A DNA stretch of 64,000 nt from Deinococcales bacterium (GCA_031414595.1 JANNVX010000004.1:17047-81046); one strand, 5' to 3'. Positions 6,159-20,704 are shown, counted from the first letter of the stretch. Made by a program: numbers and translations. The notes: generated by a model not told the origin, from the letters alone.

Positions 6159-7319
6159 ATGTACGAGGCAAAACCCGAGCATCACTTTACTTTTGGACTT
6201 TGGACAGTAGGCAACATCGGACGCGACCCATTTGGCAATCCAACCCGTAACCCACTGACTGCACCGTATATTGTCCATAAACTGGCAGAATTGGGTGCGT
6301 ATGGTGTGAATTTACACGATAACGACCTAATTCCCATAGACGCAACCCAAGGTGAACGCCAACAAATTTTGCGTGATTTCAAAAAAGCCCTCGCCGACAC
6401 GGGAATGAAAGTCCCAATGGCAACCACCAACTTATTTTCCGACCCTGCCTTTAAGGACGGCGCATTTACCAATGCCAATGCCCAAATTCGTGGTTATGCC
6501 ATCCAAAAAGCCATGAACAGCATGGACTTGGGCGCAGAACTCGGGGCAAAAACCTATGTTTTTTGGGGAGGACGTGAAGGCGCAGAAGTAGACGCTGGCG
6601 GCAATATGCTCAATGCCCTTAGCTACATGCGTGAAGCCATGAATTACTTAGCTGAGTACAGCCAAGACCAAGGCTACGGCTTTAAGTTTGCGCTCGAGCC
6701 AAAACCCAACGAACCTCGCGGCGATATTTACTTTCCTGTGGTTGGTTCGGCACTGGCTTTTATTTACACCCTAGATAAACCAGAACTTTTTGGCTTAAAC
6801 CCAGAAGTTGCCCATGAAACCATGGCTGGCTTAAATTTTGTTCATGCCATCGCCCAAGCCATAGATGCTGGAAAGCTCTTTCATATTGACTTAAACGACC
6901 AGAAAATGGGGCGTTTTGACCAAGACTTGCGCTTTGGTGCAGAAAACATCAAACAAGCCTTCTTGCTGGTTAAGCTGCTCGAGGACACGGGCTACACAGG
7001 CATGAAACACTTTGATGCCCACGCCCTTCGCACCGAAGACGAAGCTGGGGTCTGGGCTTTTGCCAAAGGCTGCATGAGGAATTACTTGATTCTTGCTGAA
7101 AAAGCCAAGCGCTTTAACGATGACAAAGAAATTCAAGCCCTGCTCGAGCATTACCACTTCAAAGACCCAGCAGTCTCGAGCTTAACTGCTAAGTACAGCC
7201 CAAGCAATGCTGCCACCCTAAAAGCCCATAGCTTTGACCGAGTTGCATTAGGCGCTCGTGGACCCGGACTAGAACTGATTGACCAATTGACGATGGAACT
7301 CTTGATGGGCATTCGCTAA
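6159..7319 (+). CDS. xylA: Xylose isomerase (class I)
   Basis: [32 protein letters not shown] and HIDLND motifs; RBS AGGAGG. Confidence 0.97.
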
Positions 7320-10043: not shown

Positions 10044-10071
10044 TTGACACCAGACAACAAAAGGCTATACT
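10044..10071 (+). promoter_or_regulatory. Sigma70-type promoter of the T-box leader
   Basis: TTGACA-16 nt-TATACT. Confidence 0.8.
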
Positions 10072-10074
10072 CGA

Positions 10075-10329
10075 GACGGGAAGAGTACCGAGTAAAAGCC
10101 CCCACAGAGAAGTGTTCCATAAGCTGAGAAGAACACTGGGAAAGCCGCAAGGGAACGTCACCCAAGCAACACCGAGGAAAGAAAGCCTAACCGCAATTAG
10201 AATCCTCTGGGTGCGCCCATCACAGCGCGTTTGAGCGCTCGAGACAACTCGAGAAAAGCGGTGGTAACGCGGGAGCGATTTTTTTCAAAAAACGCCATCT
10301 CGTCCGCAGATTTTACGGACGAGGTGTTT
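10075..10329 (+). ncRNA. T-box riboswitch leader with valine specifier
   Basis: AGAGA box (10106), GCTGAGA loop, specifier GAAC-GTC-A (GUC=Val, 10157); antiterminator GCGG-TGGTAAC-GCGGG (10258-10273) pairs with CTCGT-CCGC (10299-10307); mutually exclusive hairpin CTCGTCCG/CGGACGAG covers the GAGGTG RBS. Confidence 0.92.
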
Positions 10330-11286
10330 ATGTTCACAAAGTATGCCAATTTTGAAACCGCCCAAGCCCATGCCAAACAGAACGGTACTCGAGAACGTGT
10401 GGTGTGTTACATCACCAGAGGACTCGAGTTACTGGTTTTTCTTCACGAAGCCAAGTACCCAACGGCTGGAATTCAAGTTCCAGCCGGCGGACTCGAGGCA
10501 GGGGAGAGCATTTTTGAAGCTGCTATCAGGGAAGCCTTTGAAGAGACTGGTTTACAGAACCTCGAGATTAAAACACACCTTGGTTCTGGACTGTACAAAA
10601 ATGGCAAAAGGCACGAAATTTGGCATTTTGTCTGGCTAACGCTAGGGCAGGGCGAGGCATACTGTCTTGACCCTAAAGATGCACCTGTCGGGCTGGGTCG
10701 CCTCGCCCCTACGGTGAATGAATGGCAACATTTTGCTGAAAATAAATACACTTTTTACTGCCGTTTTGAACTGCTCGAGAATGTGGTTTTGCATTACGAT
10801 ATGGATGCTATGCTGCCCGAACTAGCACAGCGGCTTGGACTCGAGTTGCAAAGTCGGCAAACAAAGCCTCGCTCTGTTGCGATTTGTTACATCACACGCG
10901 GTTCGGAAATCCTGACTTTTAGCGGACATCCAGACGGCGGTATTGGCATACCTGCTGGTGGCATTGAAGACGGCGAAACGCCATTAGAAGCTGCCATGCG
11001 TGAAATTCTTGAGGAGAGCGGGCTGAGTCTCGAGAATCCGATTTACCTTGGACGGCAAGATTATTATTTTAAGGGGCAGCACCCAGAAAATGGTACGCCG
11101 CTCGAGTTTCTTGAGGACAGGTATTACTATTGGTTTAAGACACTCGAGCCGAGGGATTCTTGGGAGTGGGTTGTGTCGGATGGTGTTGGCGATAAGGGCA
11201 AGGTTTTTAAGCATTCGTTTGTGCCGCTCGAGGAAGCAAAGATTGATTGGGAAATGGATGAGTTTATGGGAGAACTTAAGCAGTAG
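10330..11286 (+). CDS. Tandem two-domain Nudix hydrolase
   Basis: Two Nudix boxes, GGLEAGESIFEAAIREAFEETGL and GGIEDGETPLEAAMREILEESGL; RBS GAGGTG before ATG 10330. Confidence 0.9.
   Translation: MFTKYANFETAQAHAKQNGTRERVVCYITRGLELLVFLHEAKYPTAGIQVPAGGLEAGESIFEAAIREAFEETGLQNLEIKTHLGSGLYKNGKRHEIWHFVWLTLGQGEAYCLDPKDAPVGLGRLAPTVNEWQHFAENKYTFYCRFELLENVVLHYDMDAMLPELAQRLGLELQSRQTKPRSVAICYITRGSEILTFSGHPDGGIGIPAGGIEDGETPLEAAMREILEESGLSLENPIYLGRQDYYFKGQHPENGTPLEFLEDRYYYWFKTLEPRDSWEWVVSDGVGDKGKVFKHSFVPLEEAKIDWEMDEFMGELKQ
10649..10712 (-). repeat. GTAG-type REP palindrome, in-frame in the Nudix gene, with a nested ~39-bp insert
   Basis: Reverse strand reads GTAGGGGCGAGG[insert]TATGCCTCGCCCT. Confidence 0.85.
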
Positions 11287-11327
11287 CCCAACTAGCCAAA
11301 GCCTCAAGTATCGAGAAAAAAGGATGT

Positions 11328-11774
11328 ATGAACCAAAATTTGATCATCACAGATGAATTTTCGAATCCAGATTCCGAAATGGAATACCTAAGTGATTATC
11401 CTTTAGATGCCAAAGCTCGAGCCAATGCCGAACAGTGCTGGCAATGCGGTGGTTGCTCGTATTTTTCACCATTTACTACAAGTTATGGTTTGTGTCACAA
11501 CCAAAATTCAAGGCATTATCTCGAAACTGTTTTTGAGCATTTTACCTGTGCTGTTATTGATATTGAATCGTGGGAATACCATAGTTTTGGTGCTGGAGAA
11601 ATCACAACTGAAATTCCAGAAAATGAATTGGATGCAAATGTTTGGGAAGCTGCCAAAAATGCGGTGCTTGCGTTGAAATCACATTATCCAGATGGTGAAT
11701 CACATGATGCTGTTAAACTGGTTTATAGAGTTTTAGACAACAAAGTCAAATTTGTTCTTGAAAAGAAATTCTAG
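11328..11774 (+). CDS. Cys-rich DUF3027-like protein
   Basis: QCGGCSYF...YGLC.N..S......FEHFTC pattern. Confidence 0.6.
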   Translation: MNQNLIITDEFSNPDSEMEYLSDYPLDAKARANAEQCWQCGGCSYFSPFTTSYGLCHNQNSRHYLETVFEHFTCAVIDIESWEYHSFGAGEITTEIPENELDANVWEAAKNAVLALKSHYPDGESHDAVKLVYRVLDNKVKFVLEKKF

Positions 11775-11814
11775 AGCCAAAGCATCAGGCTCGAGCCTCG
11801 AGAAAGAAGGAATC

Positions 11815-13743
11815 ATGAACCAAATTTCTATTGACAAAGCCGCCACAATTATGGGTGTTTCCTCTGCGACCATCAGAAATTGGGTCAAAGCTGGACTGAT
11901 AGAGCCTATCAATGCGCGTCCTATCGCTTTTTCCGAAGAAAGTGTGGCGCTCTTAAAAAATCAAGTCTCGAGTGGTGCGCTACAAAAATTACAAACCAGA
12001 GCCAATAAAGCCCAATCGAAAAATGATTTTATTCCGCTCGAGTACAATTCAAATTCTGGTTTTATCAGTATCTTAAACACCATTTTAGAACAATTTAAGA
12101 ACCATTCTTTAGCCATTGAACCGCTTTTATTTTTAGCTGCTCTTTGTTGTCTCGAGCAGAATAGCGAACTCAAACGCCCAATTCAATCAGATGTTTTTGA
12201 TTTGACCCAAGCAGAATTTACTCGAGTTTTGGTTAGACAAGAAATACTTGGCTGGCGAACTTCTCTGGGGGAAATAACCCATAAGGAACGTTACAAGGAT
12301 ATTTATGACTTACTTTTTACCAAAGACACAGAAGATTTACTGGGGATTTTATACCAGTCTTTACGCAGCGAAGGCAATAAATCGAATTTGGGTTCGTATT
12401 ACACCCCAACGCATTTGGTGCAAGATGCCTTACAATCTGTTCGGCTCGAGACGGTCAGTAATTTCCTAGACCCTTGTTGTGGCACTGGAAAATATTTAAT
12501 CGAGGCAGCAAAAACTTTTTCTTTGCCACCAGAATCTATTTATGGTTTTGATATTGACCAATTGGCTGTACAGATAGCCCGTGTCAATCTGCTGATGCAC
12601 TATAAAAAAGCAGAATTTTCCCCCAATATTTTTTGTCTGGATGCACTTTCTGACTTAGCCAATGGAGACTTTTTTTGCACCACAAATCACCTGATGGGGT
12701 TTTTTGATTTGATTGCCACCAATCCACCTTGGGGAGCGTATAAAAACTCGAGTATTCCAGTTCAGTTTCAGAATGTCCTCGAGTCCAGCGAAACCTATTC
12801 GATGTTTATTCTCAAATCCATGCAATTGCTGAAAAAAAGTGGAGCGCTTTCTTTTATTTTGCCTGAATCTATTCTAAAAATCCGAACTCACAGCGACATT
12901 CGAGAATTTATTGTTAAAAACAGTACAATGATAAAAATAATTCAACTCGGACGACAATTTAGTGGGGTTTTTACACCAGTTGTTCGCTTAGATTTGAAAA
13001 ATGAAATCCCAAACAACAATATGCTTGAACTGCATGACGAAAATAAATTGGTTACTCGAGTTGGTCAAAACAGATTTCTATACAATACCGATTATATTTT
13101 TGATACTCGAGTAGATGATACCGTAGAAGCCTTAATTCAAAAAATTTATGCAAAACCGCATTTGACTTTACAGGGTCATTCAGAGTGGGCGCTTGGGATT
13201 GTCACAGGCGATAACACTAAGTATTTACTCGAGCAGCCAACTCCCACTGCCGAAGCCATTTATAGAGGCATGGATATTAGCCCTTTTTACTTAACTGCTG
13301 CAAAAACATTTATCGAATTTACGCCAAGCCAGTTCCAACAAGTCGCTCCAGAACGGTTTTTTAGAGCAGATGAAAAACTGATTTACAAATTTATTTCAAA
13401 GAAATTGGTTTTTGCATTCGATGATACCCAAGCCCTAACGCTAAACAGCGCCAATATCCTGATTCCAAAATTGCCGAACATGAGCATCAAAGTTACAATG
13501 GCATTTTTGAACTCGAGTGTATTTCAGTTCTTATTTACCAAAAAATTCGCCACCCATAAGGTGCTGCGTGGAGACCTTGAAAAATTACCATTCCCGAATC
13601 TCGAGCCAGATGTCCACAATCAACTCGAGCAGCTTTTAGATAATGTGCTGGAAACAAAAATAGTGAGCGCAGAAATAGACAATTTGATATTTCAGATTTT
13701 TGAACTCACCCAAGAAGAAATAGATTTGATAGAGGGGACATAA
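11815..13743 (+). CDS. Gamma-class N6-adenine DNA methyltransferase with N-terminal HTH and TaqI_C-like target recognition domain
   Basis: GSYYTP, FLDPCCGTG, NPPW; N-terminal AATIMGVSSATIRNW HTH; C-terminal LGIVTGDN...FLNSS. Confidence 0.9.
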   Translation: MNQISIDKAATIMGVSSATIRNWVKAGLIEPINARPIAFSEESVALLKNQVSSGALQKLQTRANKAQSKNDFIPLEYNSNSGFISILNTILEQFKNHSLAIEPLLFLAALCCLEQNSELKRPIQSDVFDLTQAEFTRVLVRQEILGWRTSLGEITHKERYKDIYDLLFTKDTEDLLGILYQSLRSEGNKSNLGSYYTPTHLVQDALQSVRLETVSNFLDPCCGTGKYLIEAAKTFSLPPESIYGFDIDQLAVQIARVNLLMHYKKAEFSPNIFCLDALSDLANGDFFCTTNHLMGFFDLIATNPPWGAYKNSSIPVQFQNVLESSETYSMFILKSMQLLKKSGALSFILPESILKIRTHSDIREFIVKNSTMIKIIQLGRQFSGVFTPVVRLDLKNEIPNNNMLELHDENKLVTRVGQNRFLYNTDYIFDTRVDDTVEALIQKIYAKPHLTLQGHSEWALGIVTGDNTKYLLEQPTPTAEAIYRGMDISPFYLTAAKTFIEFTPSQFQQVAPERFFRADEKLIYKFISKKLVFAFDDTQALTLNSANILIPKLPNMSIKVTMAFLNSSVFQFLFTKKFATHKVLRGDLEKLPFPNLEPDVHNQLEQLLDNVLETKIVSAEIDNLIFQIFELTQEEIDLIEGT

Positions 13744-14483
13744 TGGAAATCTTAAAACAACATTTAGACAATTTACTCGAGCAATTAGAGCAAGAAAAAC
13801 GCGAAGAAATCATGCAGCGATTAGATGATTTACTTTCGGTCTACCCTTTTAACGAATTTGAATTTTTAATCGCAACACTGATGGGAAATAACAAAATTTT
13901 ATTAAACGATTACTACGATCTACGCGACGAATACTTAGCTCGGAATATGTACTTGCATCTTTTTGAAATGACTTCACCCCGAGGATTTGGAGAAAGTTGG
14001 GCGCAAGGTCACTTAAAAGAAATCGTTCCAGAACTGGTTAAGCCTACTCAGAAATTAGACTCGAGCTATTCAGGACAATACGATTTTCTACTCGGCGACA
14101 TCAAAATCGAAGTGAAAGCCTCTCGAGCCGTAGATTTTAATAGCCAAGAAGCACTGTATGTCAAAGCCCTAGCCTCGAGTTCAGGAAAACGCTTCGATAT
14201 GAACTTCCAGCAAGTCAAACCCGCTTGTGCCGATGTTTTTATTTGGATTGGCGTTTGGCGAGATGTGATTCGGTACTGGGTACTGGCATCCAACGAAATT
14301 GCAAACAACAAGTATTACTCGACTGGTCAACACCGAGGTAACACAGGCGAAGGGCAAATACACCTCAAAGACGATAATATCAGTAGTTTCGCAGCTTTTG
14401 AAACCAGCCCAAGGGATTTACTCGAGAAAATAAGGAAAGCCCATCGGAGGCAACATCAAAAAACTCGAGGACGGAGAAAATAG
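13743..14483 (+). CDS. Putative type II restriction endonuclease (PD-(D/E)xK)
   Basis: YD....IEVKAS and FQQVKP motifs; translationally coupled to the methyltransferase (TAATG). Confidence 0.75.
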   Translation: MEILKQHLDNLLEQLEQEKREEIMQRLDDLLSVYPFNEFEFLIATLMGNNKILLNDYYDLRDEYLARNMYLHLFEMTSPRGFGESWAQGHLKEIVPELVKPTQKLDSSYSGQYDFLLGDIKIEVKASRAVDFNSQEALYVKALASSSGKRFDMNFQQVKPACADVFIWIGVWRDVIRYWVLASNEIANNKYYSTGQHRGNTGEGQIHLKDDNISSFAAFETSPRDLLEKIRKAHRRQHQKTRGRRK

Positions 14484-14595
14484 TAGTAAAAATACACAGT
14501 GCCGAGCGCAGTGCCAAGGCTTAGGTTTCTCGAGGAAAGGATTTATGAATAATTTCGACCCAACCATCAAACCAAATTGTCAAAAAATACCCTCT

Positions 14596-14719
14596 CACAG
14601 GGCGACCACAAGCGACCATGCCCGTAAGGTGCGTGTTTATGGTCAAGATAGGGTCGCCCTGTGGTTGGATTGCAAATTTGTGTCCAACCGTAGGGGAGGG
14701 TCTTGTACTCTCCCTGACC
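14596..14719. repeat. REP cluster: CACAGGGCGACC..GGTCGCCCTGTG with nested ~39-bp insert, plus GTAGGGGAGGG..CTCTCCCT
   Basis: 12-bp inverted repeat 14596-14663; GTAG-tagged hairpin 14690-14715. Confidence 0.8.
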
Positions 14720-14765
14720 AGCCAAAGCCCCAAGCTCGAGCCTCGAGAAAACTAAGGATAAAGAA

Positions 14766-15539
14766 ATGAATTTGAAAAAAGCTAGAAAACATTTGAAAGA
14801 ATGGGCAGAACAAGGCTCTGGTTATGTGCAAAAACTTCATTTGGAAAACATTGATGAAGTGAGTGACTTACTATGTTTCGTAGCTGGATACTGCTTTGAA
14901 CTTTCTCGAGAAAAATTTTACGACATAAAACCTAAATCAAATTGGCACTGGAGAATCAATCATAAGAGAACAATATCTCACGGAACTGTATATTGGGATG
15001 AACTATTGATAGATGTGGTTGATGCTGAAAACTATGAACCCCAATATCAGTTTCTTTTAGGTATATATTTTTTATTGCAGAGTAGTGCAATCTATTCAAG
15101 TTCACTTTATCAGATTTGGCTAGGGGGCGAAGAATTTCAGACAATGGTGATTGAAGATGAAGTCCCGATAGCGATTCTGCCGCCAGACTCGCAAAAAATA
15201 ATTTATTGGTATGAAACTGATTTCGCTGAAAGTGATTTTTCCCCTGAATTCATGCCTGCACCAAATATGTTTGCCCGAATTTATTGGCAGGATTTTTTAA
15301 GAAAAAAGTATCCAAAAAAATCTACTTGTTTTGATTGCGGTTCAGACAATGCGACTCATGCACATCATGATGGCAAAGAAGTATCTGAACTTGCAAAAGA
15401 GGGGATTTGGCATCGTCCAGATGAACACAAAGTAGTAATGCTTTGTGCAGAATGTCATGTAAAACGTCACGAAGGTACGAAATCAGCAAATTTCTTAAAA
15501 GTATTTACTGTTGGTCGTCAAAAAAGGAAACAACCATGA
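14766..15539 (+). CDS. Protein with C-terminal zinc-binding HNH endonuclease domain
   Basis: CFDC...HAHH...LCAECHVKRH; stop overlaps the valS ATG. Confidence 0.7.
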   Translation: MNLKKARKHLKEWAEQGSGYVQKLHLENIDEVSDLLCFVAGYCFELSREKFYDIKPKSNWHWRINHKRTISHGTVYWDELLIDVVDAENYEPQYQFLLGIYFLLQSSAIYSSSLYQIWLGGEEFQTMVIEDEVPIAILPPDSQKIIYWYETDFAESDFSPEFMPAPNMFARIYWQDFLRKKYPKKSTCFDCGSDNATHAHHDGKEVSELAKEGIWHRPDEHKVVMLCAECHVKRHEGTKSANFLKVFTVGRQKRKQP

Positions 15540-18169
15540 ATGAATTACCCGCCAAATACGAACCATCGTCTGTCGAATCTTCTTGGTCTGAACTCTGGGC
15601 TAAACCTGGTACGTTTCGTGCCGATGCTACCTCGAGCAAACCTGCTTTTACCATTGTTATCCCACCGCCTAATGTAACGGGTAGCCTCCACCTTGGTCAT
15701 GCGCTCGATAACACAATTATTGATGTCCTGACCCGCTTTAAGCGCATGGCGGGCTTCGAGGCGCTGTATTTGCCGGGGACTGACCATGCGGGAATCAGTA
15801 CCCAAGTGCTGGTCGAAAAAGAACTTGCCCTCGAGGGGCTGCACAAAAACGACCTCGGGCGCGAGAAATTCCTCGAGCGAGTCTGGGCATTCAAAGAAAA
15901 AAATGGCGGCACGATTCTCAAGCAACTGACCCGCCTTGGTATCTCTGCCGATTGGTCTCGAGAACGTTTTACCATGGATGCTGGGCTTTCCAAAGCCGTG
16001 CGACGTACTTTTGTCGAATACGTAGCGAAGGGCATGGCGTACCGTGGCGAGAAAATTGTCAATTGGGACCCTGTTGCCCAAACCGTTCTGTCTGACCTCG
16101 AAGTTGACCGTGAGGATCGTCAGGGCAAAATGTACACTTTATCCTACGCCCTCGAGGATGGAAATGGCGTAATCAACGTGGCAACTGTCCGTCCTGAAAC
16201 GATTTTTGCTGACCAAGCCGTGGCGGTTCATCCCGATGATGCGCGGTTCTCGAGCCTTGTTGGGCAAAATGTGCGGATTCCGCTAACCGATAGGCTGATT
16301 CCAATTATTGCTGACTCGAGTGTTGAAATGGATTTTGGAACGGGTTGTCTTAAAATCACCCCAGCCCACGACCCAACCGATTTTGAAATTGGTTTGCGCC
16401 ACAACTTAGCCACGCCCAGTGTGATTGATAAATTTGCCAAACTGACTTCCGACCTTGTGCCAGAAGAATTTAGGGGTATCGAGCGTTTCGCTGCCCGTAA
16501 AGCTGTGGTCAAGGCACTCGAGGCATCAGGCGCACTGCTCGAGGCAAAAGATTATAAAGTCAGTATTGGCATTTCGGAGCGCACCAAAGAACCAATTGAG
16601 CCAATGGTCATGACCCAGTGGTGGTGCAAAATGGATAAGCCCGCCAAGCAAGTTCTCGAGGCACTGGAAGATGGCAGAATAAAAACTGTGCCTGAGCGCT
16701 ACACCAAGGTCAATCGTGATTGGCTCGAGAATATCCGTGAATGGGCGATTGGGCGGCAACTCTGGTGGGGGCATCAAATTCCAGCTTGGTACGATGCGGA
16801 TGGTAAAATCTATGTGCCAGACCTCGAGAATCCTGATTTGGATTGTGACCAAGACCCTCGTTACGCGCATCTGAATCTGACTCGAGACCCTGATGTTTTC
16901 GATACGTGGTTTTCGAGCGCACTCTGGAATTTTAGTACCATGGGCTACCCTGACCAAACCGAGGATTTAGCCAAGTTCTACCCGAATAGTGTGCTGGTGA
17001 CAGGTTATGACATCCTGTTTTTCTGGGTAGCACGGATGCAAATGGCGGGCTTTGAATTTACGGGTCAAGCGCCGTTTCATACGGTCATGCTGCATGGTTT
17101 GTACTTGGATGCCAAGGGTCAGAAGATGAGTAAATCCAAGAATAATGGCATTGACCCACTCGAGTTAATGGATAAGTACGGCGTGGATGGTTGTCGTTTT
17201 GCATGGGCGTATTTGTCTACGGGTGGGCAGGACATCAAGCACGATGAACGCCGTTACGAAATGGGACGAAATTTTTCCAATAAACTCTGGAATGCGTCGC
17301 GTTTTGCAATGATGAATCTCGAGCTTGGGCATTCGGAAATGGGCATGAGCTTAGGCGCTGCGCCAGCCAGTTTTGGTGCGACCCTGGCGGATGCTTGGAT
17401 TGTCTCGAGGCTGTCCGAAACCATTGCAACTGCCACGGCACAACTCGAGGCGTATGACCTTGGCGCTTCAATTCGGACCATTTACAGTTTTACTTGGGAT
17501 GATTTTTGTGATTGGTACATCGAAGCGGCTAAACCAGCTTTGAAAGCACAAAATCCTGTTACCCAAACCACGATTAAACGGGTTCTCGAGGCGATTCTGA
17601 AATTGCTTCATCCGTTCATGCCATTTATCACTTCAGAAATTTATGCAGCATTAAACCCTAAGCATGGACAATTGGCGTTTGAACCTTTTCCTCGAGCCGA
17701 TGAATTTGCGGTGGATACAGCTTCACTCGAGGAATTCGAGAAAGTCAAAAATGCAATTACGGCTGTGCGGGTCTTGCGGAATGAATTGATGATTCCGCCA
17801 ATGCAGATGCTGACCGTGGCTGTGGACGGGGTGAACTCTGGTGCAGTAGCCAAGAACCTCGAGACGTTTACTGGACTTGCCAAAGCCGAACTGGGCGAGG
17901 TGAGCGGCAAAATTATTAACTCGGTCGCGCCTGGACTCGAGGTGCTACTAGCACTCGAGGGGCTGATAGATACTACCGAATACGTGGCTCGGGGCAAGAA
18001 AAAAGTGGTTGAACTCGAGAAGCAAGTGGCACAAGCCAAAGGTAAGTTAAGCAATGAGAATTTCTTTAAGAATGCCCCACAAGAAGTTCTGCTCGAGGAA
18101 CAAAGGCGGATAGAGGATTTTGGAATGCAGTTAGAGCGCTTGCAAAAAGTTTTGGCGCAATTTGCTTAA
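15536..18169 (+). CDS. valS: Valine--tRNA ligase
   Basis: PPPNVTGSLHLGH, DHAGISTQ, RQLWWGHQIP, KMSKS motifs and C-terminal coiled arm. Confidence 0.98.
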   Translation: MNELPAKYEPSSVESSWSELWAKPGTFRADATSSKPAFTIVIPPPNVTGSLHLGHALDNTIIDVLTRFKRMAGFEALYLPGTDHAGISTQVLVEKELALEGLHKNDLGREKFLERVWAFKEKNGGTILKQLTRLGISADWSRERFTMDAGLSKAVRRTFVEYVAKGMAYRGEKIVNWDPVAQTVLSDLEVDREDRQGKMYTLSYALEDGNGVINVATVRPETIFADQAVAVHPDDARFSSLVGQNVRIPLTDRLIPIIADSSVEMDFGTGCLKITPAHDPTDFEIGLRHNLATPSVIDKFAKLTSDLVPEEFRGIERFAARKAVVKALEASGALLEAKDYKVSIGISERTKEPIEPMVMTQWWCKMDKPAKQVLEALEDGRIKTVPERYTKVNRDWLENIREWAIGRQLWWGHQIPAWYDADGKIYVPDLENPDLDCDQDPRYAHLNLTRDPDVFDTWFSSALWNFSTMGYPDQTEDLAKFYPNSVLVTGYDILFFWVARMQMAGFEFTGQAPFHTVMLHGLYLDAKGQKMSKSKNNGIDPLELMDKYGVDGCRFAWAYLSTGGQDIKHDERRYEMGRNFSNKLWNASRFAMMNLELGHSEMGMSLGAAPASFGATLADAWIVSRLSETIATATAQLEAYDLGASIRTIYSFTWDDFCDWYIEAAKPALKAQNPVTQTTIKRVLEAILKLLHPFMPFITSEIYAALNPKHGQLAFEPFPRADEFAVDTASLEEFEKVKNAITAVRVLRNELMIPPMQMLTVAVDGVNSGAVAKNLETFTGLAKAELGEVSGKIINSVAPGLEVLLALEGLIDTTEYVARGKKKVVELEKQVAQAKGKLSNENFFKNAPQEVLLEEQRRIEDFGMQLERLQKVLAQFA

Positions 18170-18175
18170 AAGAAT

Positions 18176-18217
18176 TTACCTCACGCACTATCTAAAATTA
18201 GGTGCGTGAGGTAAAAA
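18176..18217 (+). terminator. Hairpin after valS
   Basis: TTACCTCACGCAC / GTGCGTGAGGTAA inverted repeat. Confidence 0.75.
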
Positions 18218-18276
18218 TCAATTGGGATAAAACTTAACTCAAAAAGCAAGTGATTAGATTTAGAGGAAAACAAAAC

Positions 18277-19299
18277 ATGATACTGAGTGGACGTTACCTT
18301 GGTGAAATTATTGATGCTTTTGGCACTATCGCCGAACGCGCCGAACTTCGTGCCAAAATTGGATTTACGGATTTACATCGTGTCCTTGAAGATTTTTTCA
18401 TGAATATCCTAAATGAATTGGATAACCTGAGTCTGACAAATACCAATAGAGAAGCTGCTAATAGTGCTGGAATAGATCTGTACGATGCCAATTCAAAAAT
18501 CGGTATTCAAATCACAACGGTTAGTAGTTCGGACAAAATAAATAATACTCTACGTGTGGTTCACGAACAAAATAATACTCTCAAAAGTTCTAATGTCGAA
18601 GCGTTGTACGTGTTAATTATTGGCAAAAAACAAGGCTCATATAAACTAGATTCTACGCTGTGTGAGGCGCTTGATTTCAATGAAAAAGACAATATTTGGG
18701 ATATTGTTACATTGTCCCGAAAACTTATTGGAATTAAACCTGATGTACTTGAGAGCATTTATAAGTTTGTCATGCGTGAACTTACTCGAGTAAGAATAGA
18801 ACTTGAATTACCTGACTCTAATGGCGAATTTCCCACCGATTTAGGGCAATACATGGAAGTAAGCCCATCAAATGAATTAGGAGAATGTAAGAAGCTCAAA
18901 GAATTCTGCACTGCTAATGGGTGGGACAATGGTTTTGAAGAGGCTATTTCTGAGCTAAGACTTTACTTTCAAAAATTAAGCTCATTGCCAAGAATTACCC
19001 GACAAGTGCTTGGTGAAATTATTGATAATCGTGAACCTAATCAATCCAAAATATATGTTATTTGGGAAAAATTTCGACGAATTTGTACATATCCTGAACT
19101 TGATACGGAATTTAACATTCTTGTATACGACAATTATCTTACACGAAACATTCATGAAGAGGAACGAATTATCACAGTTCACGTTAAGGGTGATGGGGAT
19201 AGGATTCTAGGGTATCTTGAGCCTTTCCTACAGCGGGAAAGTAAAACTTTCAATAAATTATTTTCAACTTTTGATTTCTCAATCTTTGAGAACCCATAA
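18277..19299 (+). CDS. SMEK domain-containing protein (defence-associated nuclease-like fold)
   Basis: D.H...EDFF..ILN.....L.N.N......IDL.D......QIT.....KI..T pattern; AT-rich. Confidence 0.75.
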   Translation: MILSGRYLGEIIDAFGTIAERAELRAKIGFTDLHRVLEDFFMNILNELDNLSLTNTNREAANSAGIDLYDANSKIGIQITTVSSSDKINNTLRVVHEQNNTLKSSNVEALYVLIIGKKQGSYKLDSTLCEALDFNEKDNIWDIVTLSRKLIGIKPDVLESIYKFVMRELTRVRIELELPDSNGEFPTDLGQYMEVSPSNELGECKKLKEFCTANGWDNGFEEAISELRLYFQKLSSLPRITRQVLGEIIDNREPNQSKIYVIWEKFRRICTYPELDTEFNILVYDNYLTRNIHEEERIITVHVKGDGDRILGYLEPFLQRESKTFNKLFSTFDFSIFENP

Positions 19300-19450
19300 A
19301 TTCTGTTACTAATTTTCAAATGTATAGTTTCGCATTTCGCATAATTTCACGTTTTTGCACGTCCGTTAGAACAACATTTTTTATGCGAAAAATCCCTCAT
19401 TTACTTCATAAATTGCAATTCACTTATTTCACTTGTGCTATACTCGAGCT

Positions 19451-19870
19451 ATGCGACCGATTGTTCTGTCTGCCCAAGCCGCCCAGACTGCTCGAGAAGT
19501 TGGGCAACAACTCCTATCCGGACAACTCGCTTTTCACTCGAGCAATGGCGAAGTTACGTTATTGCCACAAGAAACCTTGCGTGTTTTCCAAGAAGTTCTC
19601 GAGCAATTGGGGCAAGAACGCTCTGTGGTGGTTTTACCGCTTGATACAGAACTTAGTACCTTTGAAGCTGCCGATGTGCTGAATGTCTCACGTCCCTTTG
19701 TGACCAAACTACTCGAGCGCGGCGAAATGCCGTTTCGGATGGTTGGGGCGCACCATCGGGTACTACTGGCGGATGTGTTGAAATACCAATCTGAGCAACG
19801 TCAGCGCAGTCTAATTGCGATGCAGGAATTAGCCGAACTCTCACAAGAACTTGGGTTGTACGATTCGTGA
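19451..19870 (+). CDS. Excisionase-like HTH antitoxin/regulator
   Basis: ELSTFEAADVLNVSRPFVTKLLERGEMPFRMVGAHHRV; TG-x-TATACT 6 nt before ATG. Confidence 0.85.
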   Translation: MRPIVLSAQAAQTAREVGQQLLSGQLAFHSSNGEVTLLPQETLRVFQEVLEQLGQERSVVVLPLDTELSTFEAADVLNVSRPFVTKLLERGEMPFRMVGAHHRVLLADVLKYQSEQRQRSLIAMQELAELSQELGLYDS

Positions 19871-20430
19871 TTGCGGTTCTCGATGCTAATGTGTTGTACT
19901 CGGCACGTTTACGAGATTTTTTTATTTGGCTGGCATTACAAAATGCGTACCAAGCCCATTGGACAGCCGAAATCCAAGCCGAATGGAAACGTAATTTATT
20001 GCAAAATCGACCTGAAATTCTTGTGGCTAATCTCGAGCGTACCCAAAAACTGATGGATAGGGCTTTACCTGATGCGTTACTCGAGAATGTGCCTCGGCTC
20101 GAGGTTATTCTTCCAGATACGAACGACATTCATGTTCTTGAGGCAGCCATTTATGCACAAGCGGGTTATGTGGTGACAAACAATTTACGAGACTTTCCTC
20201 AAGCCATCCTCGAACCTTTTGGTGTGATTGCTTTGGGTCCTGATGACTTTGTGATGCGTATTCTTGAACGTACACCAAATCTTGTGTTGAAGGCGATTCA
20301 AATGCAGGTGGCGAATTTACAACGCCCTCCAATTGGCATCAATACCATGTTGCTGCAACTCGAGGAACAGGGATTGGTGAAAGTTGTGGATTGGTTGCGC
20401 GGACAATTGTTACCAGAAAGTCGTGCTTGA
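19867..20430 (+). CDS. PIN domain toxin (PIN_3/VapC-like)
   Basis: VLDANVLY, LPDTNDIHVLEAA and VTNNLRDFP motifs. Confidence 0.88.
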   Translation: MIAVLDANVLYSARLRDFFIWLALQNAYQAHWTAEIQAEWKRNLLQNRPEILVANLERTQKLMDRALPDALLENVPRLEVILPDTNDIHVLEAAIYAQAGYVVTNNLRDFPQAILEPFGVIALGPDDFVMRILERTPNLVLKAIQMQVANLQRPPIGINTMLLQLEEQGLVKVVDWLRGQLLPESRA

Positions 20431-20584
20431 ACTCGAGAAGCAAGTGCAGCAAGCAAAAGGCAAATTGTCTAACGAGAATTTTGTCAAGAATGCCTCAGAA
20501 GAAGTGCTTCTCGAGGAACGCCGTCGGATTGAAGATTTTGGAATACAACTCGAGCGGTTACAAAAAGTGCTGGCGCAATTCTAA
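20429..20584 (+). pseudogene. valS: Orphan duplicate of the valS 3' end (last ~51 codons)
   Basis: ELEKQVQQAKGKLSNENFVKNASEEVLLEERRRIEDFGIQLERLQKVLAQF aligns without gaps to 18011-18163. Confidence 0.93.
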
Positions 20585-20625: not shown

Positions 20626-20704
20626 ACGATTCAAGTGCATAAATTTGACGAACACTGAATACTGTGCTATTCTTATTCCTATCAGCAGCCAAGAGGCTGT
20701 TTTT

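Follow-up and report, generated by a model that had tools for sequence, protein, structure and literature searches.

The DNA analysed here (the window) is a stretch of 64,000 nt from a Deinococcales bacterium (GCA_031414595.1 JANNVX010000004.1:17047-81046), and the element in question is a junction module of 45–50 nt that recurs among the genes lying between a T-box leader and valS. The module is composed of AGCCAAAGC, two CTCGAG hexamers 7 nt apart, an A-run, the Shine-Dalgarno (SD) sequence AAGGA and ATGAAY. As listed in Table 1, the gene order from 10330 to 18169, assigned by Pfam, NCBIfam and PADLOC, is a NUDIX gene, a gene for a 148-aa protein, an N6-adenine methyltransferase, a type II endonuclease, a gap of 282 nt, a gene for a 257-aa HNH protein and valS. 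The strong copies of the module occur in the window only within this operon and stand before genes of foreign composition; between relatives these genes (the cargo) turn over, homology ends at the edges of the module, and the module itself is conserved above the neutral level. The reading put first, to which somewhat less than an even chance is given, is that a conserved intercistronic expression module has been reused before foreign open reading frames (ORFs), and that the cargo may be shuffled by general or short-homology recombination.

Table 1. Features of the valS locus in the window, with one module copy of the relative L001 (GC3, GC content at third codon positions; HTH, helix-turn-helix).
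Feature	Position	Strand	Details
Promoter-like site TTGACA-16-TATACT	10044..10071	+	11/12 consensus match only
T-box leader	10064..10310	+	RF00230, 61 bits, E 8e-12, model positions 1-219 (full length)
Double NUDIX-domain gene	10330..11286	+	PF00293, 3.5e-29; native composition; first ORF of the operon
J1	11294..11337	+	One CTCGAGC unit short; extends over first 10 nt of the ORF (ATGAACCAAA)
148-aa Cys-rich protein, no known family	11328..11774	+	GC3 0.28; 0/2 Leu-Glu pairs as CTCGAG
J2	11775..11824	+	SD-to-codon-4 part in common with J1
Type II N6-adenine DNA methyltransferase	11815..13743	+	N-terminal HTH, TaqI-like specificity domain
Type II restriction endonuclease	13743..14483	+	REase_II PDLC03414, 6.8e-68
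J3	14512..14550	+	Marginal module copy, probably decayed
Palindromic structured element	14575..14700	.	z -4.7; in the 282-nt gap before J4
Hairpin directly upstream of J4	14686..14719	+	Kept in L001
J4	14720..14771	+	With upstream hairpin, 61/65 identical to L001:366-430
257-aa protein, C-terminal HNH nuclease domain	14766..15539	+	phrog_2255 HNH 7.5e-5; HNH clusters 0.93; GC3 0.26
valS	15536..18169	+	Expected target gene of the T-box leader
Second cargo block: SMEK-domain protein, HTH_17 protein (19433-19870), PIN protein	18250..20430	+	
Displaced second copy of valS 3′ end	20415..20584	+	Val_tRNA-synt_C, 1.9e-10
Terminator-like hairpin and T-run	20684..20701	+	After the valS remnant
K1	L001:399		Strong module copy in the relative L001; nhmmer

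The leader at the head of the array had been overlooked by the sequence-only reading on which this analysis follows up. Its score of 61 bits lies below the gathering score of RF00230 (93), and the match was seen with an E-value threshold; at gathering thresholds no RNA family of Rfam matched anywhere in the window. The assignment to the T-box family (RF00230) is based on the full-length model match, the T-box sequence GGUGGUAACGCG, a terminator helix that ends just before the NUDIX ATG at 10330, and the valS operon that follows; the specifier is read from the alignment, provisionally, as GUC (Val). The leader lies directly downstream of the TTGACA-16-TATACT site, the one strong promoter-like site at 10044, and from 10330 to 18169 the plus strand has no terminator-like site; promoter-like matches in the window number 21 against a shuffle expectation of 18.7, that is, their count is not above chance. 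The cargo genes are co-oriented and tightly packed, the start of the endonuclease gene overlapping the methyltransferase stop by 1 nt and the stop of the 257-aa HNH gene overlapping the valS start (ATGA), and the whole array from the leader to valS may be co-transcribed as one operon. At other loci, the T-box ends 71–82 nt before valS in four of the six scanned (all four Bacillales), and the remaining two have no T-box match. No tRNA or tmRNA gene that could be an integration target was found in the window.

The methyltransferase matches N6_Mtase, TaqI_C, Eco57I and HTH_17 in Pfam as well as MTase_II (3.3e-105), and with the adjacent endonuclease, which likewise matches a type II model, it makes up a type II restriction-modification (R-M) pair. 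The endonuclease has no match among solved structures and plasmids, the 148-aa protein none among plasmids, and the 257-aa protein none among phages; leads from the Protein Atlas for the 148-aa protein stayed under 0.9 throughout and carry no weight here. It is doubtful whether the 74-aa ORF at 14545 is a gene, for it matches no family and overlaps the strongly folded palindromic element. That the phage-type HNH gene could be a free-standing homing endonuclease aimed at valS alleles is a speculation.

The sequence-only reading had pointed to repeated strings at four places, and all four strings are present in the DNA. The repeat is real and local, with strong copies at 11294 (J1), 11775 (J2) and 14720 (J4) and at no other place in the 64 kb. 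J2 and J4 are identical at 28 of 31 positions over AGCCAAAGC-NNCARG-CTCGAG-C-CTCGAG-AAA; the corresponding 31-nt pattern AGCCAAAGCNNCARGCTCGAGCCTCGAGAAA, with up to three mismatches allowed, matches only 11775 and 14720 in the window, and a gapped pattern of GCCAARGC, TCGAG and AAGGA matches only 11295 and 11776, neither of them having a match in any of 100 shuffles. A profile built with nhmmer from J1, J2, J4 and the copy at L001:399 in a related genome was searched in the window and all 80 fetched loci. The low-E matches are only these four training copies (E 3e-7 to 7.5e-11) and hold by construction; what is informative is the absence of further copies, the next match having E 0.31 and no fifth copy being found. 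Local-alignment scores among the four strong junctions are 30–67, against a 99.9th percentile of 25 and a maximum of 31 in 1035 background pairs of gene-upstream regions, and no background upstream region scores above 23 when aligned with the module copies. The module together with the hairpin has no match among plasmids, and the whole stretch 11286-14771 has none among phages.

It might be thought that such a likeness arises by chance where CTCGAG is very abundant, the SD is common and second codons are rich in A, since CTCGAG occurs every 166 nt on average in the window and AGCCAA is among its commonest hexamers. This explanation is hardly credible: no shuffle in 100 gave any match, the background upstream regions stay at or below 23, and there is an orthologous copy in L001. 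For the three strong copies chance is refuted; for the string at 14513 (J3) it may suffice. There the string quoted by the earlier reading exists, although its nhmmer E-value of 28 is noise and its local-alignment score with J1 is 24; anchored at the ATG, 17 of 25 positions are identical to J1, and it is a marginal copy, probably a decayed one. In addition, GCCAAAGCTCGAGCC at 11409-11424, inside the 148-aa ORF and 80 nt downstream of J1, resembles the two halves of the module in a compact arrangement, with an estimated chance probability of about 0.07.

The edges of the copies are sharp in part. The first two had been described as beginning within about 8 nt of the previous stop: J1 does begin 7 nt past the NUDIX stop codon (TAG 11284-11286), and J2 begins directly after the stop of the 148-aa ORF (TAG 11772-11774). 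Both have the identical first base, at AGCCAAAGC, and they also have in common the A-run, AAGGA and the ATG with the next seven bases, ATGAACCAAA. In J2, J4 and K1 the common portion stops within about 2 nt after CTCGAGAAA, and the SD-to-ATG spacers diverge from there on. The distances from AGCCAAAGC to the ATG in the four strong copies are 34, 40, 46 and 43 nt, each of them 1 mod 3. A Met-Asn start is verified at 11328, 11815, 14545, 14766 and at valS (15536), and occurs in just 3 of 49 other mechanically called ORFs of the window, so that the Met-Asn starts noted earlier are indeed enriched in the array. As to homologues of the cargo, the comparison covered the methyltransferase only: its one plasmid homologue, 37% identical, begins with MAPDQLVS..., and the window protein with MNQISI...; one case decides nothing.

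In another reading the module is a coding relic: an ancestral gene would have overlapped the next start by ATGA, and what is left of its 3′ end would have been copied passively along with the DNA around it. In all four strong copies a frame reading P-K-P/H-Q...S-R-K enters the TGA of ATGA, and the copies differ in length by multiples of 3. The open frames, however, span just 11–23 codons in three of the four and lack a start codon, a decaying remnant should not be 94% conserved between genomes, and the odds against a chance match of the frames are, by our arithmetic, only about 1 in 27. We regard a relic as very improbable.

The comparison with relatives covers three Deinococcota genomes. A scan of genome contigs with ValS as the query gave only two close relatives, the genome of the window not being among the matches: L001, a 4-kb contig whose ValS is 93% identical, and L002, a chromosome of 59% GC whose ValS is 75% identical. 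In L001 the order is a PIN gene, the hairpin, K1, a 122-aa ORF starting ATGAATGAAT, K2 (a marginal copy), a 92-aa ORF and valS, the last two being joined through an ATGA overlap. In L002 an orthologous T-box leader (6675-6917, 53.5 bits) precedes a NUDIX gene that is 43% identical to the one in the corresponding position of the window, followed by a 140-aa ORF, a Phd-like ORF, a 252-aa ORF and valS. That is to say, the order of T-box, NUDIX, cargo and valS is identical in the two genomes, with 5.2 kb of genes between T-box and valS in the window and 3.1 kb in L002. The module profile found no copy in L002 despite three cargo genes in the slot; therefore the module is not needed for insertion here.

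The cargo held between leader/NUDIX and valS is different, unrelated and low in GC in each of the three genomes. No pair of cargo proteins reaches E < 0.1 when they are compared pairwise, so the earlier statement that the repeat precedes unrelated ORFs is borne out. In the window the cargo has a GC content of 36–41% against 49–50% for NUDIX and valS, and across genomes it has 28–41% against 49–50% for the adjoining core genes (60% in L002). The 148-aa, 257-aa, SMEK, 92-aa and 252-aa genes have a GC3 of 0.26–0.32 and no Leu-Glu pair written as CTCGAG; this hexamer encodes 0 of 3 such pairs in the 148-aa and 257-aa genes taken together, against 9 of 12 and 18 of 21 in the native genes. In the R-M genes the figures are 7 of 11 and 2 of 3, and therefore this pair looks older in the lineage or derived from a relative. 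The module itself, with two CTCGAG in 13 nt, is native-like in composition.

Upstream of valS the homology between the window and L001 is limited to the hairpin and module, 14686-14751 against L001:366-430, with non-homologous genes on either side. Boundaries of gain and loss between relatives had been predicted to fall in the motif, and they do so at both edges, in a single comparison with the one close relative that has usable flanks. Over this segment 61 of 65 positions are identical (94%), against 237 of 376 (63%) at four-fold sites of valS, a binomial P of 8e-9 for the excess in the module. Since it is conserved above the neutral level, the module is either constrained or recently exchanged and no neutral scar, as far as this comparison goes. 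The valS start region, AGGAAAC-N4-ATGAAYGAA, is common to the window and L002 and differs from the module; the proposal that each insertion duplicated one translation-start site is therefore not shown.

The CTCGAG pair had been proposed as a crossover point as well, and here the genome has to be considered first. There are 385 copies of CTCGAG in the 64-kb window, where base composition would, by our arithmetic, give about 13 (an excess of about 29-fold), and the next most frequent palindromic hexamer has 54. Of 348 Leu-Glu dipeptides 221 (63.5%) are encoded CTCGAG, against 1.5% under independent codon use, and 31 of the 385 copies lie outside the listed ORFs or across their ends. The density is 7.7 per kb in L001 and 5.6 per kb in L002, and no higher than 0.98 per kb in any of the remaining 78 loci, so that the trait extends to two Deinococcota relatives, whose GC contents are 46% and 59%. 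Because it is iterated genome-wide, CTCGAG alone says nothing on a crossover site; only the pair spaced by 7 nt is module-specific, with two cases in the window (J2 and J4), one in L001 (K1), and one in L002 that lies elsewhere.

In its many-fold excess, its presence inside and outside genes, its override of codon preference and its sharing by relatives of different GC, CTCGAG resembles the highly iterated palindrome HIP1 of cyanobacteria; HIP1 is the octamer GCGATCGC, whereas the present case is a hexamer in Deinococcota. The main texts of two HIP1 papers (PMC4390886, PMC5861425) contain neither CTCGAG nor Deinococcus as a term, and a literature search for CTCGAG as a highly iterated or over-represented genome palindrome found no paper. 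The excess looks like a second, independent case of the HIP1 type outside cyanobacteria, and it could help to explain the origin of highly iterated palindromes. As a side observation, 385 of the 521 TCGA in the window fall inside CTCGAG, and the R-M pair (11815-14483), with its TaqI-like specificity domain, thus sits in a genome saturated with a hexamer that contains TCGA.

How far the module could be an attachment site is to be judged against this background. In site-specific capture, the module (with or without the hairpin) would be the site at which a recombinase encoded elsewhere inserts circular cassettes, the crossover lying at or after the CTCGAG pair. Consistent with it are the recurrent 3′ edge right after CTCGAGAAA in J2, J4 and K1, the defined 5′ edge of J1 and J2 at AGCCAAAGC, a conservation well above neutral between two genomes whose genes to either side of the module differ, the confinement of the 7-nt-spaced pair to the module (2/2 in the window, 1/1 in L001), and the fusion of foreign ORFs at their start codons. 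Yet the earlier statement that no integrase is in view stands: the scan of 60 ORFs of the 64-kb window gave no integrase, recombinase or transposase family of Pfam. There is also no attC-like fold (z -0.7 to +0.4), L002 has cargo without a module, only four strong copies are present, and these differ by 10–22% plus indels, unlike freshly used sites. This route is improbable in our view. We hold it just as improbable that hairpin and module together are the attachment site of a Deinococcota gene-capture platform that installs ORFs at the start codon between the T-box(Val) leader and valS, be it through a recombinase encoded elsewhere or through repeat-duplicating integration at staggered cuts. 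If it were so, R-M and nuclease genes would be expressed under the control of amino-acid starvation, and the platform would be an integron analogue with another site, another enzyme and a riboswitch in place of the Pc promoter.

The same conservation can be read as regulation. A purely cis-regulatory element, such as an RNA processing, stabilising or translation-enhancing site, an operator for the HTH of the methyltransferase or a methylation-sensitive switch, placed wherever the long operon needs its expression adjusted and with the cargo turning over independently, would agree with the 61/65 conservation against 63% at neutral sites, with the architecture of hairpin and SD ahead of a gene in both genomes, with the N-terminal HTH of the methyltransferase and with the near-palindrome GGCTCGAGCC within J2. 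We nevertheless consider it unlikely. The module is retained in L001, where the contig carries no R-M genes, though the contig is just 4 kb long; and the homology that stops exactly at the module edges, like the first 10 coding nt common to J1 and J2, is not accounted for. The module as a promoter was ruled out, for no sigma-70-like site lies at any copy; the module as a structured RNA was ruled out as well, since its fold is no better than that of shuffles (z -0.69, +0.01, +0.43 and -0.57, none significant and none attC-like). The hairpin, of -14.7 kcal/mol upstream of J4 and -15.3 upstream of K1, has weak z values (-1.95 and -1.0), occurs only at these two places, one copy per genome, and has no T-run.

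In the reading put first, the slot between the T-box(Val) leader with NUDIX and valS would collect promoterless foreign genes lineage-wide, and valS would still be transcribed because the cargo is co-oriented, tightly packed and free of predicted internal terminators. The module, with AGCCAAAGC, a core of 7-nt period holding the two CTCGAG, the A-run and the SD, would provide the translation start ahead of each cargo unit. Since several copies lie in direct orientation, they could act, together with valS, as short homologies through which general, homology-facilitated or microhomology-mediated illegitimate recombination of the host may add, delete and swap units. 

Several points weigh against this. 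The reading draws on two relatives, one of them with the module. The cargo of L002 has no module, so that insertion does not require it, and the copies are alike over just about 31–50 nt at 78–90%, which is short for exchange of the RecA type. The selection that keeps the module 94% identical is left unexplained, the translation of dispensable cargo being a weak reason, and joints at or near start and stop codons would not be predicted from random illegitimate joining in the absence of strong selection. For the 1 mod 3 distances from AGCCAAAGC to the ATG the reading offers no explanation, and the module, unlike the phage cassettes to which it is compared below, shows no sigma-70-like promoter.

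Downstream of valS there is a second block. The last 166 nt of valS (17997-18162) recur at 20415-20580 with 78% identity (E 9e-33), so that valS 3′ repeats flank the SMEK/HTH/PIN genes, and no integrase was found among the Pfam-scanned ORFs of 18170-20415. With the valS 3′ end duplicated around this block, a duplication-flanked insertion thus recurs at the locus without an integrase. The current 3′ end, the remnant and the 3′ end in L001 are about equally distant (78–81%); the remnant ends ...AQF* as in L002, and the working copy ends ...AQFA* and is followed by a hairpin as in L001. This long hairpin just past the valS stop (18175-18215; L001 3763-3803) has z values of -8.4 and -5.7, its stem shows paired changes between the genomes (where one arm changes from C to T, the facing arm changes from G to A), and no T-run follows it on the plus strand. 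Within the block, ORFs overlap at 19320-19870, where the HTH_17 ORF (19433-19870) is a likelier partner of the PIN gene at 19867 than the 120-aa ORF at 19320, which has no family.

The palindromic element in the 282-nt gap has a counterpart, in inverted orientation, within the NUDIX gene (10647-10701; 40 nt, 80%). An interpretation of 14612-14651 as a reversed NUDIX pseudogene was dropped; this segment is now regarded as a copy of a palindromic element that is also present inside the NUDIX gene. The NUDIX segment resembling the element (10647-10715) is translated, and the NUDIX gene of L002 carries a different hairpin-forming insert at the corresponding place (L002 7283-7320); the element may be an in-frame palindromic repeat element.

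Compared with known systems, the array recalls several without being identical to any. An integron consists of intI (a tyrosine recombinase gene), attI, Pc and attC cassettes, the cassettes being promoterless single-gene units whose attC sites, imperfect palindromes folding as single strands, stand 3′ of the ORF. The likeness lies in co-oriented single-gene units, joined by a repeated junction, that would be promoterless and served by one upstream promoter. The differences are that no intI is found among the ORFs of the 64-kb window, that the junction stands 5′ of each ORF and holds the SD and start codon with no imperfect palindrome of the attC type, and that the module copies are native in composition and do not travel with the cargo. 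The integron-like logic without attC palindromes that had been suggested is therefore right about the missing fold, while the analogy fails on the enzyme and on the structure of the site. The interval looks like a gene-capture hot spot, and nothing points to a dedicated integron-like enzyme.

Genomic islands inserted in gene 3′ ends carry a surrogate 3′ end. The 166-nt valS 3′ end present twice around the SMEK/HTH/PIN block is like this, but the block has no integrase, and the likeness concerns the downstream block and not the junction motif. In homology-facilitated illegitimate recombination of transformable bacteria (PMC3240628), a conserved anchor gene (here valS) stands beside foreign DNA with short-homology joints and no mobile-element genes; taken alone, such recombination predicts neither a repeated 45-nt junction nor joints at ORF boundaries.

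The closest logic would be that of the PeSL regulatory cassettes of T4-type phages, rather than that of an integron. According to Arbiol et al. 2010 (PMC2839356), a PeSL combines a sigma-70 promoter with a terminator stem-loop and is repeated, in a hyperplastic region, between small, non-essential and often ORFan genes; where close relatives differ there by an insertion, deletion or replacement, the change has the cassette as its boundary, and no dedicated recombinase takes part. Similarly, the three copies within 3.5 kb of the window, like the one strong and one marginal copy of L001, are all followed by different ORFs, and the boundaries of replacement between the window and L001 coincide with the module, in one comparison. 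In contrast to PeSL, the present module has no promoter and is an SD-bearing start region, its hairpin occurs in one copy per genome and has no T-run, and it lies with four strong copies in an operon of a bacterial chromosome and not in a phage. If the module copies do mediate the exchange of cargo, the locus would be a counterpart, on a bacterial chromosome, of PeSL shuffling in phages. Foreign genes would then enter an essential operon under riboswitch control with no help from mobile-element enzymes, and the restriction, nuclease and toxin-antitoxin genes among them would be expressed according to how far tRNA-Val is charged. One slot with three cargo sets in three genomes makes, in any case, a compact test bed for insertion hot spots between core genes.

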